A DNA stretch of 64,000 nt, from positions 2,670,713-2,734,712 of the forward strand of contig CAWJSJ010000002.1 in assembly GCA_963845565.1 (NCBI GenBank), read 5' to 3'. Source of the DNA: an uncultured Methylomirabilota bacterium. Lineage in GTDB: Bacteria; Methylomirabilota; Methylomirabilia; Methylomirabilales; 2-02-FULL-66-22. This document shows positions 31,193 through 45,494 of this stretch, piece by piece. Every line of letters starts with the position of its first letter. The first letter of the stretch is position 1. Under the pieces are notes generated by a model. It worked only from the letters and a program-made list of their open reading frames with translations. It was not told the origin of the DNA and did no database searches. The position numbers were made by a program, and so were the translations under genes.

Positions 31193-31248
31193 TTGACAAG
31201 AACACAAGATATAGGGCATAAAGTGTCGGCCTGCCCAAGATGTTGCGC
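31193..31248 (+). promoter_or_regulatory. Tandem NrdR boxes next to a TTGACA -35 upstream of nrdJ
   Basis: ACACAAGATATAGGGC (31202-31217) and GCCCAAGATGTTGCGC (31233-31248) resemble the NrdR consensus acaCwAtATaTwGtg. Their starts are 31 bp apart; TTGACA lies at 31193-31198. Confidence 0.75.
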
Positions 31249-31389
31249 CAAATGGCCTGGGAAGGATCCAGACGAAGGTCGCGGAAGGATACCGGGTTCC
31301 GGGGGTTCCGACGGGTTCCGGATCCGGTTTTCGGGTGGGTCCGACGCGGGTCGGTCACGAGGTGCTCGATAGGTATGGAGGAAGTTGCT

Positions 31390-33715
31390 ATGGCAGAGCT
31401 CGCGCGTCCGTTGAAGCAAGGCCAGTGGTCGGAATCCGCGCTGCGGGTCTTGCGGGAACGATATCTGGACCGATCACGCAAGGGCGGTGGCGACGCGCTG
31501 GCGCCAGGCGCCGGAACACGCGAGACTGCCGAGGACATGTGCTGGCGGGTGGCGACGGCCATTGCGAGCGCCGAGGCGACGTGGGGTCGGACGCCGCAAC
31601 AGATCCACGAGGCGGCCAGCCAGTTCTACGAGTTGATGGTGGACGGCGCGTTTCTGCCAAATTCCCCCACGCTGATGAACGCCGGCAAAGACAACGGCCT
31701 GCAGTACTCGGCCTGCTTCGTCCTTCCGGTGGGCGACTCCATGGACCAGATCTTCGAGGCCGTCAAGCGCGCCGCCATCATCCACAAGAGCGGCGGGGGA
31801 ACCGGATTCGCCTTTTCGCGGCTTCGACCCAAGGATACCGAGGTCCGGTCCACCGGCGGGAAGGCCAGCGGGCCGGTGAGCTTCCTGCGGGTCTTCAACG
31901 GCGCCACCGAGGCGGTCAAGCAGGGCGGCACCCGGCGCGGTGCCAACATGGGCATCCTGAAAGTGGATCACCCGGACATCCTGGAGTTCATCCACTGCAA
32001 GATGGACGGCGGCATCAGCAACTTCAATATCTCCGTGTCGATCACCGAGCCCTTCATGGAGGCCCTGGCAAAGAACGGCGAGTACGAGTTGCGGGACCCG
32101 CACACCCACGAGGTGGCGGGTCGCCTCAAGGCCCGCGAGGTCTTCGACCGCATCGTGAAGGCGGCCTGGCAGACGGGCGATCCCGGTCTGGTCTTCATCG
32201 ACCGCGTGAACGGCGGCCCGGCCAATCCGGTCCCGGACCTGGAGACGATCGAGGCCACCAATCCCTGCGGTGAGCAGCCCCTGGCTCCCAACGACGCTTG
32301 TAACCTCGGGTCCATCAATCTGGACAAGTTCGGCCGTCCGGGCGATCCGACGGGGCCGATCGCCTGGGATGCGCTGGAGCGGGCGGTTCGCCTGGGGGTG
32401 CGTTTCCTGGATGACGTGATCCAGGTGAACCCGTACCCCTTGCCGGAGATCATGGACCAGGTCCACCGGAACCGCCGGATCGGTCTCGGCGTGATGGGCT
32501 GGTCGGACCTCCTGATCCAGCTCGGGATTCCCTATGACAGTCAGGCCGCGCTGGATCTGGGCGGCAAGGCCATGGAGTTCATCACCACGATCGGCCGGGA
32601 CGAATCGGCGCGGCTGGCCGAGGAACGGGGTCCGTTCCCGAATTGGTCCAAGAGCATTTACCGGAACGCCCGCCCGCTCCGGAACTCCACGGTGACGACC
32701 ATCGCCCCCACCGGGACGATCAGCATCATCGCCGGCTGCTCGTCGGGGATCGAACCCCTCTTCGCGGTGGCGTACAGCCACATCGTGGGGGACCGACACC
32801 TGACGTTCGTGAATCCCCACTTCGAGGCGGTGGCGCGGAAGCGCGGCTTCTACAGCGAGGCGCTGATGGAGGCGGTGGCGGAGCACGGGACCGTGCACGA
32901 CATCGCCGAGGTGCCGGAGGACGTCCGCCGGGTCTTCGTCACCGCGCACGAGATCGCGCCCGAGTGGCACGTCCGCATGCAGGCCGCTTTCCAAAAGGCC
33001 ACGGACAATGGCGTCTCCAAGACGATCAACCTGGCCAACTCGGCCACGGTCGAGGACGTCGCCCGGGCCTACCAGATGGCGTATGACCTGGGATGCCTCG
33101 GGATCACGGTCTTCCGGGATGGTTGTAAGTCGGCCCACGGCGGCCAGGTGCTCCACGTCGGGACCGGCGGCGCGGGGGAAGGACGTGCTGGAAGAGCACG
33201 AGGGGGTGGCCCACGTTCCGACGACGGTCAGCCCGCGTCCGCGGACGCTGCGCGGGGTGACGTTCCGGGTGGACACCCCGCTTGGCACCGGGTACGTCCA
33301 CGTGAATCAGAACACCTCGGGGGAGCCGTTCGAGGTCTTTCTGAACGTGGGCAAGGCGGGGAGCGACGTCCAGGCGGACGCCGAGGCGCTGGGCCGGCTC
33401 ATCTCGCTGATCCTGCGCATGCCCTCGCCGTTGACGCCGCGCGAACGGGTGGAGGAGATCGTCAAGCAGCTCGACCGGATCGGCGGGCGCCGCGATGCCG
33501 GCATGGGGCCGGGGCGCGTCCGATCCATCCCCGATGCCATCGCGCAGGTCCTGGCGGAGCATACCGGATTGCGCGAGCCGGGCGAGGAGCACGTCCGGGA
33601 GGTTCGGGAGGGGCGGCCCAAGGCCAGCGACATGTGTCCGGACTGCCAGAACTTCACGCTCGTCTTCGAAGAAGGCTGCCAAAAATGCCACGTCTGCGGC
33701 TTCAGCGAGTGCTAG
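31390..33715 (+). CDS. nrdJ: Class II (B12-dependent) ribonucleotide reductase with C-terminal TSCPD/Zn-ribbon domain; one-base frameshift at 33174-33178
   Basis: FLPNSPTLMNAG, SACFVL, QGGTRRGANM, TNPCGEQPL..NDACNLGSINL, TIAPTGT, SKTIN. The +1 frame continues PRPRTLRGVT...PFEVF...GKAGS...SIPDAIA...CPDC...EEGCQKCHVCGFSEC. Confidence 0.93.
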
Positions 33716-34657: not shown

Positions 34658-34760
34658 AGGAGCCGTTACGAAAAAACTGGTCCATTGTTTGGAATTTCGT
34701 TACGGCTCCTTATGCCGTTTCCAAGATTTCTCCGGTCAAGTTATTCTTTGACAACGGCCT
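34658..34760 (-). mobile_element. MITE-like composite palindromic element, full copy 1
   Basis: AGGAGCCGTTACGAAA...TTTCGTTACGGCTCCT joined to TATGCCGTTTCC...CAAGTTATTCTTTGACAACGGC; the reverse complement aligns end to end with 60844-60947. Confidence 0.7.
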
Positions 34761-34776: not shown

Positions 34777-34989
34777 ATGAAGATCGAGATCGACGCTGCG
34801 CATGATCTGGTCAAGGTCAATCTCCTTGCGGACGTGCCCGTCGCAGAGTCGAAGGAGACCGAGGGCATGGTCTTCGGCTATGCGGCCGACCGCCGCATCG
34901 TCCAGATCGAGATCCGCGGCGCCAAGAGCCGGATCAACGGCGAGCTCCTGAAACTGATCGACCCCGCCTTCGCCCGATCCGCGGCCTGA
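34777..34989 (+). CDS. DUF2283-like small protein
   Basis: MKIEIDAAHDLVKVNL....VAESKETEGMVFGY.....IVQIEI pattern. Confidence 0.65.
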   Translation: MKIEIDAAHDLVKVNLLADVPVAESKETEGMVFGYAADRRIVQIEIRGAKSRINGELLKLIDPAFARSAA

Positions 34990-35309
34990 CCCCGACGACC
35001 CCGCCCTCCATGCGGTAATCGCGCGGCGCCGCGTGAGCCGTCCAGCAGGACCAATCCTGAATTCCCCTTGACACTCCGAGTGGGGGTGGGGCATGCTGCG
35101 CTACCCAGGGGGGCACGGCTCCGCGATTCACGGCCGGTCGGGTCGAGGTTGCCTGAGTCGTCCGCCGCGGCAAACATAAACCATGCACCGTTTCGCTCTG
35201 TGCGGGATCCCCGGGACGACGCGTTCGACGGCGCCGCACCGGGGAGACCTGTATTCACGGCCGAGACTTGCGAGCGTTGACCGAACAGGGGAGACAAGGA
35301 GGGGACACG

Positions 35310-35594
35310 ATGGCGGGACTGGACTTCAAGGCGCCGGTGGCGAGGGAGCAGGAGGATGCGGCGATTGTCGCCCACAACACGCGCATGGGCGTGATCCTGT
35401 TCGTCGTCTATGTCGCGTTCTACGGAGGGTTCATGGCCCTGAGCGCGTTTTGGACCGAGCTGATGAGCGTGCCCGTTCTGGGCGGGGTAAATCTGGCCGT
35501 GGTCTATGGGTTCGCGCTGATCGCCGCCGCGCTGCTCCTGGCGCTGGTCTACATGCGGGTGTGCCGCAAGTCGAAGGAGGGGGGCTCGAAATGA
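35310..35594 (+). CDS. DUF485 (YjcH-like) accessory membrane protein of the solute symporter
   Basis: 2 TM helices; GGVNLAVVYGFALI; AAGGAGG RBS; overlaps the actP start. Confidence 0.85.
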   Translation: MAGLDFKAPVAREQEDAAIVAHNTRMGVILFVVYVAFYGGFMALSAFWTELMSVPVLGGVNLAVVYGFALIAAALLLALVYMRVCRKSKEGGSK

Positions 35595-37513
35595 TCCACG
35601 AGACCTCCTGGATTGCCGTCCTGATCTTCCTATTCTTCGCCGGATCCGTCCTGGGCATCAGCTTCTACCTGGGTTCGCGCGCCAAATCGGCCAGCGGGTA
35701 CTTCGCCGCCGGCGGCGGCATCCACTGGGCCGTCAACGGGGTGGCGTTTGCCGGGGACTACCTGTCGGCGGCCTCGTTTCTCGGCATCTGCGGGATGATT
35801 GCCTTCTTCGGCTACGACGGGTTCCTGTACTCCATCGGGTACCTCGCCGGGTGGATCGTGGCGTTGTTCATCATCGCCGAGCCGCTGAAGCGGCTGGGGC
35901 GATACACCTTTGCCGACGCGCTGGACAATCAATTCAACTCCCGCGGCATCAAGCTGGCGGCGGCCATCAGCACGCTGGTGGTCAGTTGCTTCTATCTGAT
36001 CCCGCAGATGGTGGGAGCCGGGGCCCTGGTGCAGCCGCTCCTGGGATTCCCGCACTATGTGGGCGTGATCGTGGTGGGCTGCGTGGTGACGCTGATCGTC
36101 ACGACGGCGGGCATGGTCTCGACCACCTGGGTGCAGTTCATCAAGGGAACGATGTTGGTCCTCCTGTGCGCGTTCATCACGGTGCTGATCCTGCTCCGGG
36201 GCGTCACGACCCGGCCGACGGATGCCGACGGCCGCGAGGTGCGGATCGCGAAACGCGGCGTGCCGGCCGCCGAGGTCACAGGTGCGGCCGGGGTGCAGGT
36301 CTTGGCCGAGGAGGGCGCCTGGCGCGGCAAGCCCTATGTGCGCATCAAGAGCGCCGCCGGCCCGGTGGCGGTCTGGCGCAAGGACGGTGATCTGCTGTCC
36401 GAGACCCAGACGATCACGGCGCAGCAGGACGGGCGGAAGCTGGTCAATGGGCGGCCGCGGGGCAAGGGGCCGGGCGAGGCGGATCTCTCGCCGGTGGGCT
36501 ATGCGTCGAAGCTGCCCAACGGCGTGGAGCGAACCGGCGCCATCGGCCCGCTGGCGTTCTTGCAGACCATGCAGGAGAGTGACGTCATCCAGTGGGCGCC
36601 CGAGAAAATTGTCGAGTCGGATGGCAGCGTGACGACGGTGTTTTCCCAGCGGGTGGCCTCGGGCAAGGATTTCATGACGCCCGGCTCCAGCCCCACCTTC
36701 AAGAAGGTCCGCAGCGCGAAGCTGTTCGACAAGCTCGATTTTCTGTCCCTGATGCTGGCGCTGTTCTGCGGCACGGCGTCCCTGCCGCACATCCTGATTC
36801 GGTATTACACGGTCAAGGACCAGATCAGCGCCCGGAAGAGCACGGTGGTGGGGATCGCGGCCATCGGCTTCTTCTACGTGCTGACGCTCTACCTCGGGCT
36901 GGGAGCGATGACCAGCGGAGCGTTGGACATCACCGATTCCAACATGTCGGCCCCCCTCCTGGCCCGCAGCTTCAGCGAGCTGCTGTTCGCGGTGCTGTCG
37001 GCCGTGGCCTTCACCACGGTGCTGGGGACGGTGAGCGGCCTGATCATGGCCGCCAGCGGCGCCGTGGCGCACGATCTGATGACCAACTTCCTTCAGATGA
37101 AACTGGACGAGTTCCAGAAGGTGCGCGCCGCCAAGATCGCCGCGATGTGCGTGGGGGTGGTGGCCATCGTGCTGGGGATCCTGTTCGCCAGGATGAACGT
37201 CAACTTCCTGGTCGGGTGGGCGTTTAACATCGCCGCCTCGGCCAATCTTCCCGCGCTGGTGATGCTCCTGTTCTGGAAGCGGACGACCAAGGAAGGCATC
37301 ACCGCCGCCATCATCGTCGGGATGCTGTCGTCCCTGGGATGGATCCTGCTGAGCGCGCAGGCCTTCAGCGACGTCTACGGTTTGAATCCGGCGAACGCCA
37401 TCGTGCCCTTCAGTCAGCCGGCGATCGTGACGATCCCGTTGGGTTTCTTGGTGCTGATCGTGGTCTCGCTCTTCACGAAGCCCGCTCGGGTTTCGGCGGT
37501 GGTCGCTCGGTAA
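35591..37513 (+). CDS. actP: Cation/acetate symporter ActP-like (SSS family) with a large extramembrane insertion
   Basis: AFAGDYLSAASFLG, AEPLKRLGRYTFAD, YLIPQMVGAG, TTWVQFIKG, GTASLPHILIRYYTV, AHDL, AASANLP. Confidence 0.88.
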   Translation: MIHETSWIAVLIFLFFAGSVLGISFYLGSRAKSASGYFAAGGGIHWAVNGVAFAGDYLSAASFLGICGMIAFFGYDGFLYSIGYLAGWIVALFIIAEPLKRLGRYTFADALDNQFNSRGIKLAAAISTLVVSCFYLIPQMVGAGALVQPLLGFPHYVGVIVVGCVVTLIVTTAGMVSTTWVQFIKGTMLVLLCAFITVLILLRGVTTRPTDADGREVRIAKRGVPAAEVTGAAGVQVLAEEGAWRGKPYVRIKSAAGPVAVWRKDGDLLSETQTITAQQDGRKLVNGRPRGKGPGEADLSPVGYASKLPNGVERTGAIGPLAFLQTMQESDVIQWAPEKIVESDGSVTTVFSQRVASGKDFMTPGSSPTFKKVRSAKLFDKLDFLSLMLALFCGTASLPHILIRYYTVKDQISARKSTVVGIAAIGFFYVLTLYLGLGAMTSGALDITDSNMSAPLLARSFSELLFAVLSAVAFTTVLGTVSGLIMAASGAVAHDLMTNFLQMKLDEFQKVRAAKIAAMCVGVVAIVLGILFARMNVNFLVGWAFNIAASANLPALVMLLFWKRTTKEGITAAIIVGMLSSLGWILLSAQAFSDVYGLNPANAIVPFSQPAIVTIPLGFLVLIVVSLFTKPARVSAVVAR

Positions 37514-37570
37514 GCCGTTGTCAAGGAATAACTTGACCGGAAATGGACCAAGGATTTCGTAACTGCGCCT
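37511..37570 (+). mobile_element. Internally deleted copy of the MITE-like element
   Basis: TAAGCCGTTGTCAAGGAATAACTTGACCGG fused to AAATGGACCAAGGATTTCGTAAC, i.e. the left and right ends of the full element; begins at the actP TAA. Confidence 0.65.
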
Positions 37571-37605
37571 GATCGCGGGGCCGCCCCGCGATCCCACACG
37601 TTACC

Positions 37606-37647
37606 ACGGCCGGCTTGGAGCACTCGCTCCGGGCCGGCCGTTTCTTT
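37606..37647 (+). terminator. Intrinsic terminator after actP
   Basis: Stem ACGGCCGGCTTGGAGC / GCTCCGGGCCGGCCGT with a 4-nt loop, followed by TTCTTT. Confidence 0.65.
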
Positions 37648-37661
37648 CGGGCGGGGCGGGG

Positions 37662-38456
37662 TCAGGGCGGTGGGGCGCTCGGATCGGCAGGGCACATCAG
37701 GAGCCGCTGCTCTTCGGTATCCCAGATCACCATGGTGCGGCACGGCGAGTCCAGATCGTCGCCGAGACAGACGAAGCGGGTGCCTTCGATGACGACGTCG
37801 TGCGGGCGATGAAAGTGGCCGAACACCCACACCCGCGGCGTGTAGGCGAGGTCGCACCAGAGCCGGCTCAGCTCCACTTCGCCGCGGTCGTGCTCCGGCC
37901 CGGGATCGAACCCCGCCCCCCGGATGTGCTCCGCGACGCCGGGTTCCAGCGCGGGCGCGCCGTGCAGCCCGATCCCGATCCGCGACGGGCAGGAATGGGT
38001 CACGATGAGTTGCGGCCGATGCCGGTTGAACAGCGCGGTGGCGTGCTCCCGGTTGCGCCGCAAGATGTAGTTGGGGAAACCGCTCAGCCAGTTATGCTTC
38101 TGCGGACGGTCCACATGCAAGGCGCCGCCCAGGAAGCCCACCATCGAGGCGCCGAGGGGTGTAACCGACGGACGGGGTTGATAGACCAGATTCTGCTCGC
38201 GCTTCCAGACGCGGCCGGCGCCGGTGAGCAGGGCCCGGCGCAGCCAGCGGTGGTCCTCGTGGTTGCCGTCGATCACGTGCAGGGGGACCGGATACCGAAC
38301 GGTGTCCTCGCGAGCGCGGCCCAGGCGGTCCCGGTAGAATCCGAAATCCCCGACCTGGATGGCGGCCTCGACCCGAAAATCCACCTGGGCCTGCCGCAGG
38401 ATCTCGGCCAGCCGCCGATGCCGACCATGCACGTCGCCGACCACGAGCACGCGCAT
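37662..38456 (-). CDS. Calcineurin-like metallophosphoesterase
   Basis: All five motifs present: GDVHG, GDFG, GNHE, TH, FGHFH. Confidence 0.92.
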   Translation of the reverse strand: MRVLVVGDVHGRHRRLAEILRQAQVDFRVEAAIQVGDFGFYRDRLGRAREDTVRYPVPLHVIDGNHEDHRWLRRALLTGAGRVWKREQNLVYQPRPSVTPLGASMVGFLGGALHVDRPQKHNWLSGFPNYILRRNREHATALFNRHRPQLIVTHSCPSRIGIGLHGAPALEPGVAEHIRGAGFDPGPEHDRGEVELSRLWCDLAYTPRVWVFGHFHRPHDVVIEGTRFVCLGDDLDSPCRTMVIWDTEEQRLLMCPADPSAPPP

Positions 38457-38460
38457 GGGC

Positions 38461-40983
38461 TCAGACCGTCCGCGCGAAATCGGTCTCCAGGCGGGCCTGG
38501 AACACGGTGATGTCCGCGAAGACCTTCTTCAGCACCGACCGTTCAAGCTGGGTCAACGTCTGCAAGTCGATGGCGTTGTCCGGGACGAGGCCGTGGTTGA
38601 TCTGGGCCGCCTGGTGCGTCAGCCGCATCTGCATCAGGGTGGTGTAGGCCTGGACCAGCTCGTCGTGGCTGGATGGCAGCAGCACGCCCTGATCCCGCAG
38701 GTGCCGCAGCCGCTCGAGGGTGTTCGTCTCCGCCAGGCGGTGCTGCAGGGCATACATCCGTGCAAAGTTCACCAGCGGGATGATGGCCGTCTTGATGTTG
38801 AAAGCGGCGGAGCGTTCGCCGGACGATTCCAGCTGGATGGTTCCGAAGAAGCCGCGGGGCGGCTTGAATTGCAGGGTGCTCTGGGCCAGGTGGAAGAAAA
38901 AGACGTGTCTGCCGTCGTCGTCCAGGGCGCCGTGCAGGTGGCGACGCAGCTCCCGCACGTAATCGGCCTGGCCGTAGGCGCAGCGGAAATCGAAGAACAC
39001 GTTGACGTCCAGCAGGTCCTGGGGCCGCGCCGCCGCCACGCACTCGGTGAAGTACCGCCGCCACGCGGACAGGGGTTGACACCACTTGGGGTTGGAGGCC
39101 ATCACGTCCCCCTTGCAGCGTCGGTAGCCCACCAGATCCAGCCAGCCGCAGACCGTGTCACCGAGCCGCAAGAAATACGCCTGGGCCGCCGCGGTCCGCT
39201 CCGGGTCGCCGTCGGAAAAAATGATGGCGTTGTCCTGGTCGGTGGCCAGGGTTTGCTCCTCCCGCGCCTCGCTGCCCAGCACGACGAAGGCGAAGGCGAC
39301 CGGGGGTGGGCCGAGGTCGGCTTCGGCCAACTCGATGAGCCGCACCAGGATGGCATCGGACACGGTGGTCATGATCCGGGTGACGCTCTCGACCCGGGCG
39401 CCGCTCTCCAGGAGTGCCTTGACGAACACCGGAAGCTTGGCGCGGCTGTCCTTCAATTCCTCGGGGGACCGCGCCTCCTGGATCTCGCCGAGCAATGCCG
39501 CGATCGCGTGTCGTTGCGCATGGAGGATCTCCGTGCCGATCAGGACCCCCAGCGTGGCGCCGCGCTCGTCGGTGACCACCAGATGCTGTATCCCGTGTTC
39601 CTGCATCAGGAGCGCGGCTTCGAACAGCAGCGCGTGATCGGCGATGCGCACCAGAGGGGCGCTCATGATGGTGGAGACGGGCTGGACGGCGTCGCGCGCC
39701 AAGGCCAGCACGCGGTTGCGCAGGTCCTGGTCGGTGACCATGCCGATCGGCTCGCCGCCCGGGCCGGTGACCAGGATGGCGCTGCTCTTCGCGCGCGCCA
39801 TGGTTGCCACCGCTTTGTGGATCGGCGTGTCCAGCCCGCAGGTCACCAACGTCAGCGGCATGGACTTGATGGAGCGCGTGGCCAGCGGCAGCATGCTCTG
39901 CAGGTCGGCGACCAGACGAGCGAGCGTCTCCTCGGTCTGTTTGCGGGTCGCCACATCCCGGATGGAGAGGATCTGGCCGGGCCGATCCCCGATCCGGACG
40001 GGGCCGACCGTGAGGAGGACATCGGTCACCTCGCCGTTCTTGTGGAGGAGCTGGGCGCGCCGCTCCGTGGCCGGCTCGGTCGGGCTTCCGTTGGGGAGCG
40101 AGGCGATGATCTTCTCCAGCGGCAGTTGGGCCAGTTCCTGTTCCGTGTACCCCAGGCGGTTCCGCAGGGTTGTGTTCGCATAGACGGGGCGCTCCTGCAT
40201 CACCAGCAGGATGCTCTCGGTGGTGCCCTCCACCAGCAGCCGATACTTTTCTTCCGAGCCGCGCAACGCCGTTTCCGCGCGCCACCGACGGCGCTCGAGG
40301 TTCAGCCCCTGCTTGGCGATGTACGCCAGGAGCCCGGCGATGACGACGGAGATCCCGACGGACACCTGCAGGGCGCGGCGGATGATCGCGTTGATCTCCG
40401 CGCGCACGTCTTCCATGTAGATGCCGGTCCCCACCACCCAGCCCCAGGGCGCGAAGCCTTTGACGTAGGACAGCTTGGGCACCACGCGCGTCTCATCGTC
40501 CTTCCACTGCCAGAGATACTCGACGTAGCCGTCGCCGCGCTCCCGGACGGTCTGGGCAAATTCGACGAACAGCTTCTTGCCCGCCGGGTCGGCATAATCC
40601 GAGAGACTCTGTCCGTCCAAATCCGGGCGGTAGGGGTGCATCACCATCCGGGGGCTGAGGTCCTGGATCCAGAAGTAGTCCTTGCCGTCGTCCCCGAAAC
40701 GCAGATGTCGGACCCGCGCCGCCGCCGCCTGCTGGGCGGCCGCCCGGCTGAGCGTCCCGCGCTGCTCCTCTGCGTGGAGGGCGGCGAGATCGCTCCAGGC
40801 GGCCTGGGTGAGCTCGCGGAGCATCTCCTTCTTCCGCTCGACGATGTTCTTCTTCATCGTCGGGATGATGACCGCAAAGATCAGGACCAGAAACAGCGTG
40901 AAGGTGAGGATGGCGGGGGAGATGATGTTGACGGCGAAGTGCCGCCAATGCGGTCGCGGGTACGGCGCCCGGTTACCGTCCAT
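38461..40983 (-). CDS. Membrane sensor nucleotidyltransferase: TM-sCache_2-TM-PAS-CBS pair-DUF294/DUF294_C
   Basis: Cache motifs LRF...DYFW...MVMHP..PDLDG...DPAGK..F...GYVEYLW...KLSYVKGFAPWGWVVGTGIY; SEEKYRLLVE PAS entry; CBS IGMVTDQDL and IQHLVV; NTase LGSEAREEQTLATDQDNA; CKGDVMASNPKW; NIKT...PLV.FAR...TNTLERL. Confidence 0.9.
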   Translation of the reverse strand: MDGNRAPYPRPHWRHFAVNIISPAILTFTLFLVLIFAVIIPTMKKNIVERKKEMLRELTQAAWSDLAALHAEEQRGTLSRAAAQQAAAARVRHLRFGDDGKDYFWIQDLSPRMVMHPYRPDLDGQSLSDYADPAGKKLFVEFAQTVRERGDGYVEYLWQWKDDETRVVPKLSYVKGFAPWGWVVGTGIYMEDVRAEINAIIRRALQVSVGISVVIAGLLAYIAKQGLNLERRRWRAETALRGSEEKYRLLVEGTTESILLVMQERPVYANTTLRNRLGYTEQELAQLPLEKIIASLPNGSPTEPATERRAQLLHKNGEVTDVLLTVGPVRIGDRPGQILSIRDVATRKQTEETLARLVADLQSMLPLATRSIKSMPLTLVTCGLDTPIHKAVATMARAKSSAILVTGPGGEPIGMVTDQDLRNRVLALARDAVQPVSTIMSAPLVRIADHALLFEAALLMQEHGIQHLVVTDERGATLGVLIGTEILHAQRHAIAALLGEIQEARSPEELKDSRAKLPVFVKALLESGARVESVTRIMTTVSDAILVRLIELAEADLGPPPVAFAFVVLGSEAREEQTLATDQDNAIIFSDGDPERTAAAQAYFLRLGDTVCGWLDLVGYRRCKGDVMASNPKWCQPLSAWRRYFTECVAAARPQDLLDVNVFFDFRCAYGQADYVRELRRHLHGALDDDGRHVFFFHLAQSTLQFKPPRGFFGTIQLESSGERSAAFNIKTAIIPLVNFARMYALQHRLAETNTLERLRHLRDQGVLLPSSHDELVQAYTTLMQMRLTHQAAQINHGLVPDNAIDLQTLTQLERSVLKKVFADITVFQARLETDFARTV

Positions 40984-44776: not shown

Positions 44777-45205
44777 CTAGCCGCCAACGAGCAGCATCCT
44801 GCGGAAGGCGGCGGGCGAAACGATGGGGATGTCGCGGAATTGCCCGAGGTCGAGGAGATCGCGGTCTCCGGTGACGATGCAATCGGCCTGGCCCTCGACG
44901 GCGCAGGAGAGAATGGGATTGTCCTTGGGATCGCGGAGTACGGCCGACACCGTGTGCCTTTCCGTGACGACGACGGCGCGGACGGACAGAAGATCGAGGA
45001 GGCCCTGCACGTCGTGGGGATCGAGAGAGTACCTGCGGGCAATCTTTGGAAGGTGGAGCACGCGGTCGAGCTCGGAAAGAATGGTGGGACCGATGACCAG
45101 ATCGAACCGCCGCTCGCGCCACGCGGTCAGGATTTCGGCGGGTGCCCCCGCACTGAGGATGGCGCCGCTGACGAGAACGTTGGTGTCGAGGACCGCCCTA
45201 CGCAC
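44777..45205 (-). CDS. PIN-domain toxin (PIN_3-like)
   Basis: VLDTNVLVSG, RDPKDN.IL.CA, IVTGDRDLL; GTG start overlaps the antitoxin stop. Confidence 0.9.
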   Translation of the reverse strand: MRRAVLDTNVLVSGAILSAGAPAEILTAWRERRFDLVIGPTILSELDRVLHLPKIARRYSLDPHDVQGLLDLLSVRAVVVTERHTVSAVLRDPKDNPILSCAVEGQADCIVTGDRDLLDLGQFRDIPIVSPAAFRRMLLVGG

Positions 45206-45494
45206 GCTTCCGGCTCTTGGTGCGGGGAGCGGCACGGACCTCCTCGACCGCCGCCGCAACATCGCTCTCGACCTGCTCGGGGTCCTTCTCCCGGTTCCGA
45301 TTCCGGATCCGGTCCAGGACGGCGAACGGCTCATCCCATGCCCGGGCCAATCGCTCGTACCGCTCCATGTCGATCACGGCGGCCACCGGTTTGCCCGCCT
45401 TTTCGACGATGACGGTGTCTTTCCCGAAATGAACCTGGCCGAGGATCTCCGCGAACCGGTCGCGGGCCTCCTTGGCCGACAGACGCTTGACCAC
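45198..45494 (-). CDS. Phd/YefM-family antitoxin
   Basis: LSAKEARDRFAEIL..V......IVEKAGKPVAAVI...YE. Confidence 0.9.
   Translation of the reverse strand: MVKRLSAKEARDRFAEILGQVHFGKDTVIVEKAGKPVAAVIDMERYERLARAWDEPFAVLDRIRNRNREKDPEQVESDVAAAVEEVRAAPRTKSRKRA

Follow-up and report, generated by a model that had tools for sequence, protein, structure and literature searches.

The stretch of DNA analysed here (the window, 64,000 nucleotides from an uncultured Methylomirabilota bacterium) encodes at positions 38461-40983 an 840-residue membrane receptor that ends in a DUF294 nucleotidyltransferase (NTase), and this receptor is a membrane-spanning variant, real and conserved, of the uncharacterised COG2905 nucleotidylation family. 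Its gene is followed by that of a calcineurin-like metallophosphoesterase, and the two converge on a second gene pair encoding a DUF485 protein and an ActP-like sodium:solute symporter (SSS). From sequence, structure prediction and gene neighbourhoods we tentatively propose, at what we judge to be just short of an even chance, that the system carries out carboxylate-gated, reversible protein nucleotidylation of DUF485-ActP, which would be reset by the phosphoesterase. The features of the locus and of the receptor (transmembrane segments are abbreviated TM) are as follows.

35310..35594, plus strand: DUF485 small subunit of the symporter, 94 aa, two-helix (Pfam PF04341, E 1e-12; hydrophobic segments)
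35591..37513, plus strand: ActP/MctC-like sodium:solute symporter, 640 aa (SSF, E 3e-68)
37606..37641, no strand assigned: GC-rich hairpin of 16 pairs between the converging gene pairs (position suggestive)
37662..38456, minus strand: calcineurin-like metallophosphoesterase of a Dbr1-like clade, 264 aa, proposed eraser (Metallophos, E 8e-12)
38461..40983, minus strand: membrane receptor nucleotidyltransferase TM-sCache_2-TM-PAS-CBS-CBS-DUF294-DUF294_C, 840 aa, proposed writer
40378..40839, minus strand: sCache_2 sensor, residues 49-202
39952..40218, minus strand: PAS domain, residues 256-344 (weak Pfam match, TIGR00229, fold match)
39508..39870, minus strand: CBS pair, about residues 372-492
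39022..39435, minus strand: DUF294 nucleotidyltransferase core, residues 517-654
38476..38904, minus strand: DUF294_C helical domain, residues 694-836

Architecture of the receptor

The domain order TM-sCache_2-TM-PAS-CBS-CBS-DUF294, which a preliminary description had read from the letters alone and proposed to check with Pfam, was borne out. Pfam found sCache_2 (E 2e-39), DUF294 (E 1e-47; PF03445, 161.5 bits against a gathering score of 21), DUF294_C (E 8e-43; PF10335, 146.2 bits against 22.5) and two CBS stretches, and hydrophobic segments at residues 25-43 and 206-224 lie on either side of the Cache domain. The PAS domain was below the Pfam cut-off (PAS_9, E 9e-5) and is identified by TIGR00229 (E 1e-10) and by its fold (Z 15.1 to 3olo) in the AlphaFold2 model of the receptor, which has a predicted local distance difference test score (pLDDT) of 85.4 and a predicted template modelling score of 0.57. 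The C-terminal DUF294_C domain is classed with the HEPN-like domains at the C-termini of GlnD and GlnE that lack the RNase motif (PMC3710099). There is no match to a cyclic nucleotide-binding (cNMP) domain in the receptor, where TM-Cache-TM-PAS takes its place, and none in Pfam or NCBIfam to HD, ACT or PF03710, which are domains of the GlnD/GlnE family, while the MctS model is matched partially, over the sensor alone (90 of 700 bits).

The fusion of Cache to DUF294, for which misassembly had been named as a possible cause, is real, because the 120 best of 2631 homologs (E 1e-30 or better) all have Cache, CBS, DUF294 and DUF294_C in one protein. Independent contigs from public runs also span the PAS/TM2/Cache and the NTase/phosphoesterase junctions, none of them covering the entire gene. 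The receptor is the sole full DUF294 protein of the source genome (G000), in which the two other, weak matches are GlnE and GlnD, both separately encoded and above cut-off.

The catalytic domain

The NTase motif, GSEAREEQTLATDQDN, occupies residues 570-585. Of 201 DUF294 domains, from Cache-type and cNMP-type proteins alike, 200 have its G570, S571, R574, E576, D582 and D584, the remaining one being a fragment with a gap, and a cysteine at the position of C623 is invariant (201/201). The G-[GS] and D-x-D hallmarks of a pol-beta-type enzyme are present, with G570-S571 and D582-x-D584 in 200/201 domains and with fold matches to proteins of this kind. The best structural match of the model was the adenylyl-removase domain of GlnE (Z 27.7, root-mean-square deviation (rmsd) 3.5, 338 aligned), followed by the adenylyl-transferase domain of GlnE (Z 26.4, rmsd 3.1, 312 aligned) and by DrrA (Z 25.6, rmsd 3.5, 299 aligned), and Foldseek agreed with these matches. 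All three are enzymes that act on bonds between protein and nucleoside monophosphate (NMP). No cGAS/DncV-like enzyme or tRNA nucleotidyltransferase was among the fold-search matches listed, which are too few to count against such a kinship. Profile alignment with small templates further revealed the GlnD-like motifs G-x-x-x-R-x-E...D-x-D (R574/E576) and acidic-x-R (D665-x-R667). Both the intact motif and the relationship to GlnD and GlnE that had been noted are supported.

Sensor domain and CBS pair

The alignment of the Cache domain with those of PscD (5G4Y) and Adeh_3718 (4K08) is free of gaps over the ligand pocket, and the model of the domain superimposes on acetate-bound Adeh_3718 (4K08) with an rmsd of 1.0 Å and a Z of 24.3. 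The propionate contacts of PscD given in PMC5062169 are Y90, W92, H103, F126, Y143, W145 and K156, all seven of which are matched in the receptor (Y103, W105, H116, F139, Y156, W158, K170), and these seven pocket residues are identical in 176/176 Cache domains of the receptor family. The receptor also has His at the pyruvate/lactate selectivity position, where His rather than Leu goes with the binding of pyruvate and not of lactate, according to PMC12415202. From this seven-residue match the outer sCache_2 domain is predicted to sense acetate-like acids, in line with the carboxylate-type pocket expected at the outset.

The second input that had been suggested, energy charge through the CBS pair, is weakened. 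One canonical site is kept (G414-x-x-T417-x-x-D420; among 111 aligned proteins, 106 have T417 and 107 have D420), but the pair is missing from 8 of 60 full Cache-NTase proteins, so energy-charge sensing would be optional. The Cache domain itself serves several outputs: its best 150 representatives comprise 34 Cache-NTase, 11 PHP-Cache-NTase, 5 PHP-Cache and 2 DEDDh-Cache-NTase proteins and 98 without an NTase, and most of the 29 of these 98 that were scanned have kinase-type domains.

The phosphoesterase partner

The phosphoesterase gene starts four bases after the receptor stop, and the product is, as described initially, a calcineurin-like enzyme with all five motifs (D8-x-H10, G36-D37, N65-H66, H154 and H214-x-H216), an assignment that agrees with its Metallophos match and its fold (model pLDDT 96). 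Its seven metal ligands are kept in 80/80 aligned relatives, and a profile built from 80 sequences identified Dbr1 as the best solved match (E 8e-10), as did Foldseek (E 3e-11). The structural comparison with Dbr1 (Z 17.9, rmsd 3.9, 227 aligned, 16-19% identity) is tied with that to aq_1956 (Z 18.0).

Linkage of this enzyme to DUF294 is conserved in other genomes. In a reciprocal metagenome scan that covered the best 80 of 188 relatives, a DUF294 gene precedes the phosphoesterase gene in 42/42 relatives of at least 48% identity that have more than 200 bases of upstream DNA and in 4/29 below 48%, a threshold that was set after inspection of the data, while nine relatives had no upstream DNA. 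The 251 genomes of a second phylum (that of genome G209) contain three strong matches to the phosphoesterase, each within about 200 bases of DUF294_C; in the window's own phylum it was found in 1 of 201 genomes.

Some distant relatives occur in another setting. Among 25 distant loci not linked to DUF294, four lie near RlaP nucleotidyltransferases and three near RNA ligases, these neighbours being on phage-like contigs (L142, L143, L144, L153, L154, L158). Such enzymes are described in phage RNA repair in PMC7824862, and it is possible that the distant relatives form a Dbr1-like RNA-repair family.

One partner slot filled by several folds

The place of the phosphoesterase beside the NTase was compared across 118 DUF294 loci, namely 79 of the best 80 from 596 GTDB matches (fragment L048 was set aside), 20 of 48 matches from the phylum of the window (whose count of 46/201 genomes includes G101, which supplied no locus) and 19 of 30 matches in the second phylum. 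Five labels were set by hand, and the loci are kin, so the counts are not independent and describe a pattern rather than a statistical test. Exactly one hydrolase-type partner is present at 114 of the 118 loci, none at four and two types at no locus, the slot being filled by DEDDh, PHP or calcineurin-like enzymes or by DUF6915. In the first set the Cache types have an N-terminally fused PHP domain (36), a phosphoesterase of the window's type (13, two of them cut at the 5' end), a YfcE-like enzyme (5), another calcineurin-like enzyme (1) or no partner nearby (1), and among the cNMP types the partner is DEDDh at 20 loci and a YfcE-like enzyme at one, with no partner at two. The metal motifs are intact in 34/35 PHP and 19/19 DEDDh proteins. 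The earlier suggestion that the phosphoesterase stands in place of the usual exonuclease is therefore upheld by a single slot that is never doubly filled, and a DEDDh profile built from these loci had no match in G000 at E 1e-5.

Several partners are joined to the receptor in one chain. Most Chloroflexota-type proteins have a PHP domain fused ahead of TM1. In three genomes DUF6915 is fused there (weak Pfam match, Atlas score 0.95) and in two of the best 150 Cache representatives an intact DEDDh domain, which ties the canonical partner to the same slot. Because unrelated phosphoester-cutting folds interchange, and fuse on the cytoplasmic side of TM1, the partners are probably erasers of the DUF294 product; this is good comparative evidence and supports DUF294 and its partner as a writer/eraser pair. 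The two DEDDh fusions (P0303 and P0351), with the order DEDDh-TM-Cache-TM-PAS-PAS-(CBS)-DUF294, are predicted to be bifunctional writer/eraser receptors in a single chain. DUF6915, a mostly viral domain, lies at about residues 25-150 of three Cache-NTases (L233, L234 and L235), where its position and a His/Asp pattern suggest that it is a hydrolase or phosphoesterase. In the NTase tree, from which fragment L028 was left out, the Cache types form one weakly supported clade inside the cNMP types (approximate likelihood-ratio test 79, ultrafast bootstrap 64), and the partner kinds are interspersed, with deep nodes too weak for swaps to be counted.

The symporter and the four-gene cassette

The 3' end of the DUF485 gene and the start of the symporter gene overlap by four bases. 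The permease had been called ActP, and this holds to the extent that it is ActP/MctC-like with a DUF485 partner; it is below the NCBIfam cut-offs for MctC (408 of 670 bits) and ActP (390 of 750), and a soluble insertion of about 180 aa (about residues 204-380, window about 36200-36730) splits the match. The insertion had no Atlas match above 0.80 and no known family was found for it. It is typical of cassette symporters, and a few genomes in which no DUF294 was found have it too. With a profile built from the locus, the symporter is the only SSF match in G000, and a plasmid search with ActP gave seven partial matches.

Linkage of the NTase to such a transporter is conserved across genomes: an SSS gene adjoins 47/54 Cache-type loci, and the same four genes occur together in many taxa. 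Of 21 genomes of the window's genus, two were found to have the symporter, and the cassette is missing between dcd and the thiamine pyrophosphate (TPP) enzyme gene in G202, G162 and G159, in which these two genes are 0.4-1.1 kb apart. The four genes make up a single cassette, and the scarcity of the phosphoesterase in the phylum and the presence of close homologs in other phyla, which according to their sources include Verrucomicrobia and Planctomycetota, suggest that it was probably acquired in one piece. In G205 (L188) all four are present and frameshifted, with 18 single-base indels; none was found in nrdJ, dcd, the TPP enzyme or FtcD, one was in EamA and 15 were in an aldehyde oxidoreductase. 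Co-decay of the cassette was dropped as an interpretation since EamA and the aldehyde oxidoreductase are broken too, and decay and assembly error are inseparable. An outer-membrane porin (weak matches, DcaP-like or phosphate-porin-like) is an additional member of many cassettes (L005, L007, L008, L010, L012, L016, L022-L024, L058 and others), but not of the window's cassette.

What is controlled can be approached from what travels with the NTase. Acetyl-CoA synthetase (Acs) adjoins 17/23 cNMP-type but 1/54 Cache-type loci, and in G000 (98.7% complete) no AcsA was above cut-off (161 of 725 bits, in a search whose control passes in 7/14 genomes), which favours the transporter over Acs as the target, and Acs was rejected as the target in G000 for want of an AcsA above cut-off. 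A riboswitch or operator upstream of DUF485 was likewise rejected, there being no Rfam match and no sigma-70 consensus in this region, and, in 34 cassettes, no upstream RNA or DNA motif that extends past near-identical relatives; nor do the cassette clusters share a conserved transcription factor. Given the SSS linkage, the cassette as a unit, the lack of AcsA and the lack of a travelling regulator or motif, DUF485-ActP is the likeliest object of the switch, on moderate evidence. A predicted complex of ActP 1-632 with NTase 490-840 scored 0.22 against a mark of 0.32, without folded controls, and counts neither for nor against an interaction. Fragments of each of the four genes occur in RNA runs, on contigs that belong to related strains, which is no proof of expression.

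Proposed mechanism and alternative explanations

In the proposed mechanism, acetate, propionate or pyruvate would bind the outer sCache_2 pocket, as its seven matching residues suggest. Judged by the architecture, the signal would then travel by way of TM2, a coiled helix and PAS and reach DUF294 in the cytoplasm, and the CBS pair would contribute a dispensable adenylate input. Judging from its fold and genetic linkage, DUF294 would then move NMP from a nucleoside triphosphate onto a cytoplasmic side chain of DUF485-ActP, much as GlnD, GlnE and DrrA act on their targets, and the Dbr1-like enzyme, as the occupant of an interchangeable partner slot, would hydrolyse the phosphodiester and reset the tag. 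The direction we prefer is that the tag closes the transporter, and that outside substrate shifts the system towards its untagged, active state. Some bearing on this comes from Price et al. (10.1101/072470), in which DUF485 is cofit with ActP-like permeases and is proposed from mutant fitness to be a component of ActP, and in which DUF4212 is cofit with an 'RNase T domain protein' that is labelled COG2905 (its identity is uncertain) and encoded three genes downstream. This protein is probably the DEDDh eraser, since the gene order is DUF4212-SSS-NTase-DEDDh in 15/17 loci, and if it is, loss of the eraser would mimic loss of the transporter and the tag would be inhibitory.

Several observations weigh against this proposal. 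The partner families are best known for acting on nucleic-acid or nucleotide substrates. Seven of the 54 Cache-type loci are without an SSS gene in the DNA examined (three of them with at least 5 kb on both sides), as are all 11 cNMP-type loci in the sample from the second phylum, and in G208 the cassette is split, the NTase being apart from the phosphoesterase and a different SSS. No acceptor residue is specific to linked transporters, and no Tyr is common to all small subunits across types. Y406 of ActP was tried as an acceptor and rejected as non-specific, a Tyr being present there in 92/97 linked SSS proteins and in 10/18 where DUF294 was not found. In addition, the alignment, which is gapped in this region and rests on templates of 9 and 4 sequences, places C623 roughly opposite the third Asp of GlnE and a Gly of GlnD. 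For the soluble homologs, published deletions gave no phenotype for Pflu5625 of Pseudomonas fluorescens, which is predicted to act by nucleotidylation (PMC5715377), and moderate defects on propionate and pyruvate for PP_0354 and its exonuclease PP_0353 in P. alloputida (10.64898/2026.09.07.749794), and Price et al. guessed at an effect on expression of the symporter rather than on its activity (10.1101/072470).

The last point also fits a different product, a small oligonucleotide messenger or an addition to RNA 3' ends that controls the expression or activity of the transporter, with the partner as its nuclease. The partners do resemble DEDDh exonucleases, RNase AM or 3',5'-nucleoside bisphosphate phosphatase (below cut-off) and the 2',5'-phosphodiesterase Dbr1, and the neighbours of the distant phosphoesterase relatives include the RlaP and RNA ligase genes noted above. 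We nevertheless regard this as rather unlikely, given that no cyclic-dinucleotide synthase or RNA-tailing enzyme ranked above the protein-NMP enzymes among the matches listed, which were dominated by CBS, and that neither an Rfam match, a shared upstream motif nor a conserved transcription factor accompanies the cassette. The bond between protein and NMP is itself a phosphodiester with a free 3'-OH, and from its chemistry could be cut by the partner folds. Nucleotidylation of some other protein, be it a carbon enzyme such as an acyl-CoA synthetase, a PII-like protein or the receptor, is suggested by the position of Acs at the cNMP-type loci and by the other acyl-CoA ligases of G000, along with its GlnD and GlnE, and 10.64898/2026.09.07.749794 compares PP_0354 with acetylation of Acs and uridylylation of PII; it is distinctly unlikely here, however, as Acs is nearly absent from Cache-type loci, no AcsA was above cut-off in G000, and the cassette moves with the transporter only.

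DUF294 might instead bind nucleotide without useful transfer, the receptor gating the transporter by contact and the phosphoesterase being engaged in unrelated nucleotide housekeeping. The replacement of the third Asp of GlnE by Cys, the removase domain as best fold match and the weak knockout phenotypes of the soluble homologs agree with such a role. GlnD, however, is an active transferase without a third catalytic Asp and has Gly at this position, so C623 need not point to a dead enzyme, and D-x-D is kept in 200/201 domains. Moreover, unrelated hydrolase folds with intact metal ligands (PHP 34/35, DEDDh 19/19, window-type phosphoesterases 80/80) refill one slot, three of them by fusion, which makes a non-catalytic role highly unlikely. 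That the whole arrangement is a chance neighbourhood or an assembly chimera is scarcely credible: the source genome has an estimated contamination of 6.4% and there is a frameshift in the nearby nrdJ, but this explanation is refuted by the uniform fusion in 120/120 best homologs, by the recurrence of the four genes and by the bridged junctions.

Relationship to known systems

The closest relatives are the soluble COG2905 proteins (cNMP-CBS-CBS-DUF294) with an adjacent DEDDh exonuclease, which share the CBS-DUF294-DUF294_C output, the same invariant residues and the linkage to carboxylate symporters, and which are already predicted in print to be regulators that act by nucleotidylation, as is proposed here. 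In P. aeruginosa a cluster of this kind, PA3232-PA3235, rises on propionate, according to PMC9765439. The preliminary description of a new signalling system was thus slightly overstated. In the receptor form, however, the input is a membrane-spanning sCache_2 with PAS where the known form has a soluble cNMP domain, a Dbr1-like phosphoesterase is the partner in place of an adjacent DEDDh exonuclease, and Acs and control of the CrbS/R type are outside the cassette. A literature search, which was thin on subscription journals, found no publication on a Cache-DUF294 receptor and none on DUF6915.

GlnD and GlnE resemble the receptor in the fold of the NTase and helical domains, in the GlnD-like motifs and in having writer and eraser in one system, but the receptor has no HD, ACT or second NTase domain and is anchored in the membrane with an outer sensor, and there is no PII or glutamine synthetase in the cassette. 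The sensor has all seven pocket residues and the selectivity His in common with PscD, McpP, Adeh_3718 and MctS-type kinases, from which the receptor differs in its output, a nucleotidyltransferase, although the same Cache subfamily also feeds histidine kinases. Dbr1 is the best solved match of the phosphoesterase by profile and Foldseek, yet this enzyme is bacterial, is coupled to a receptor NTase and is only 16-19% identical to Dbr1; its Asp8 stands where Dbr1 has Cys. The AMPylation domain of DrrA/SidM has the same fold (Z 25.6) at 13% identity, but DrrA is a secreted effector while the receptor is an inner-membrane sensor of an environmental bacterium.

Other features of the locus

The two gene pairs converge on the hairpin at 37606-37641, which is likely a terminator; the terminator scan by itself is no evidence for this because it found four terminator-like sites where 3.4 were expected from shuffles. 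A dispersed repeat of about 101 bp, MITE- or REP-like (miniature inverted-repeat or repetitive extragenic palindromic element), is located at 34658-34758 with a partial inverted copy at 37509-37570. It has 190 matches of at least 80 bases across all six contigs of G000 and is absent from the site of the locus in related strains. Between dcd and the cassette, a short conserved stretch (34779-34990) is probably a small gene, as judged by eye, and genomes of the same genus that have no cassette contain it too. The gene nrdJ (31240-33715), which encodes the class II ribonucleotide reductase, is split by a frameshift near 33160-33180, where relatives have a single frame, and either an assembly error or a real frameshift is possible. 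A tRNA-Ser that ARAGORN called at 32950-33028, within nrdJ, is probably spurious. Further along, at 44777-45494, is what we take from its sequence to be a pair of PIN-like toxin and Phd-like antitoxin, which is absent from that site in G205.

Significance

Acetate and pyruvate permeases commonly have DUF294/COG2905 proteins as neighbours, and in the published texts available the role of these proteins is only predicted. The predictable ligand of the receptor provides the switch that has been missing for an in vitro assay of this family. More broadly, and with rather less than an even chance of holding, the receptor may represent a class, present in many anaerobic and uncultured phyla, of one-component receptors that span the membrane, signal by reversible nucleotidylation, switch a secondary transporter according to its outside substrate and draw their eraser from at least four unrelated folds, with DUF6915 as a phosphodiesterase. 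The interchangeable partner slot gives a functional lead for DUF6915 and for the bacterial Dbr1-like family. If the proposal is true, nucleotidylation would rank as a transmembrane output beside those of kinases, cyclases and chemoreceptors, and the NMP-tagging of a transporter would be an unusual means of controlling uptake, one that uses nucleotide tags instead of phosphate.

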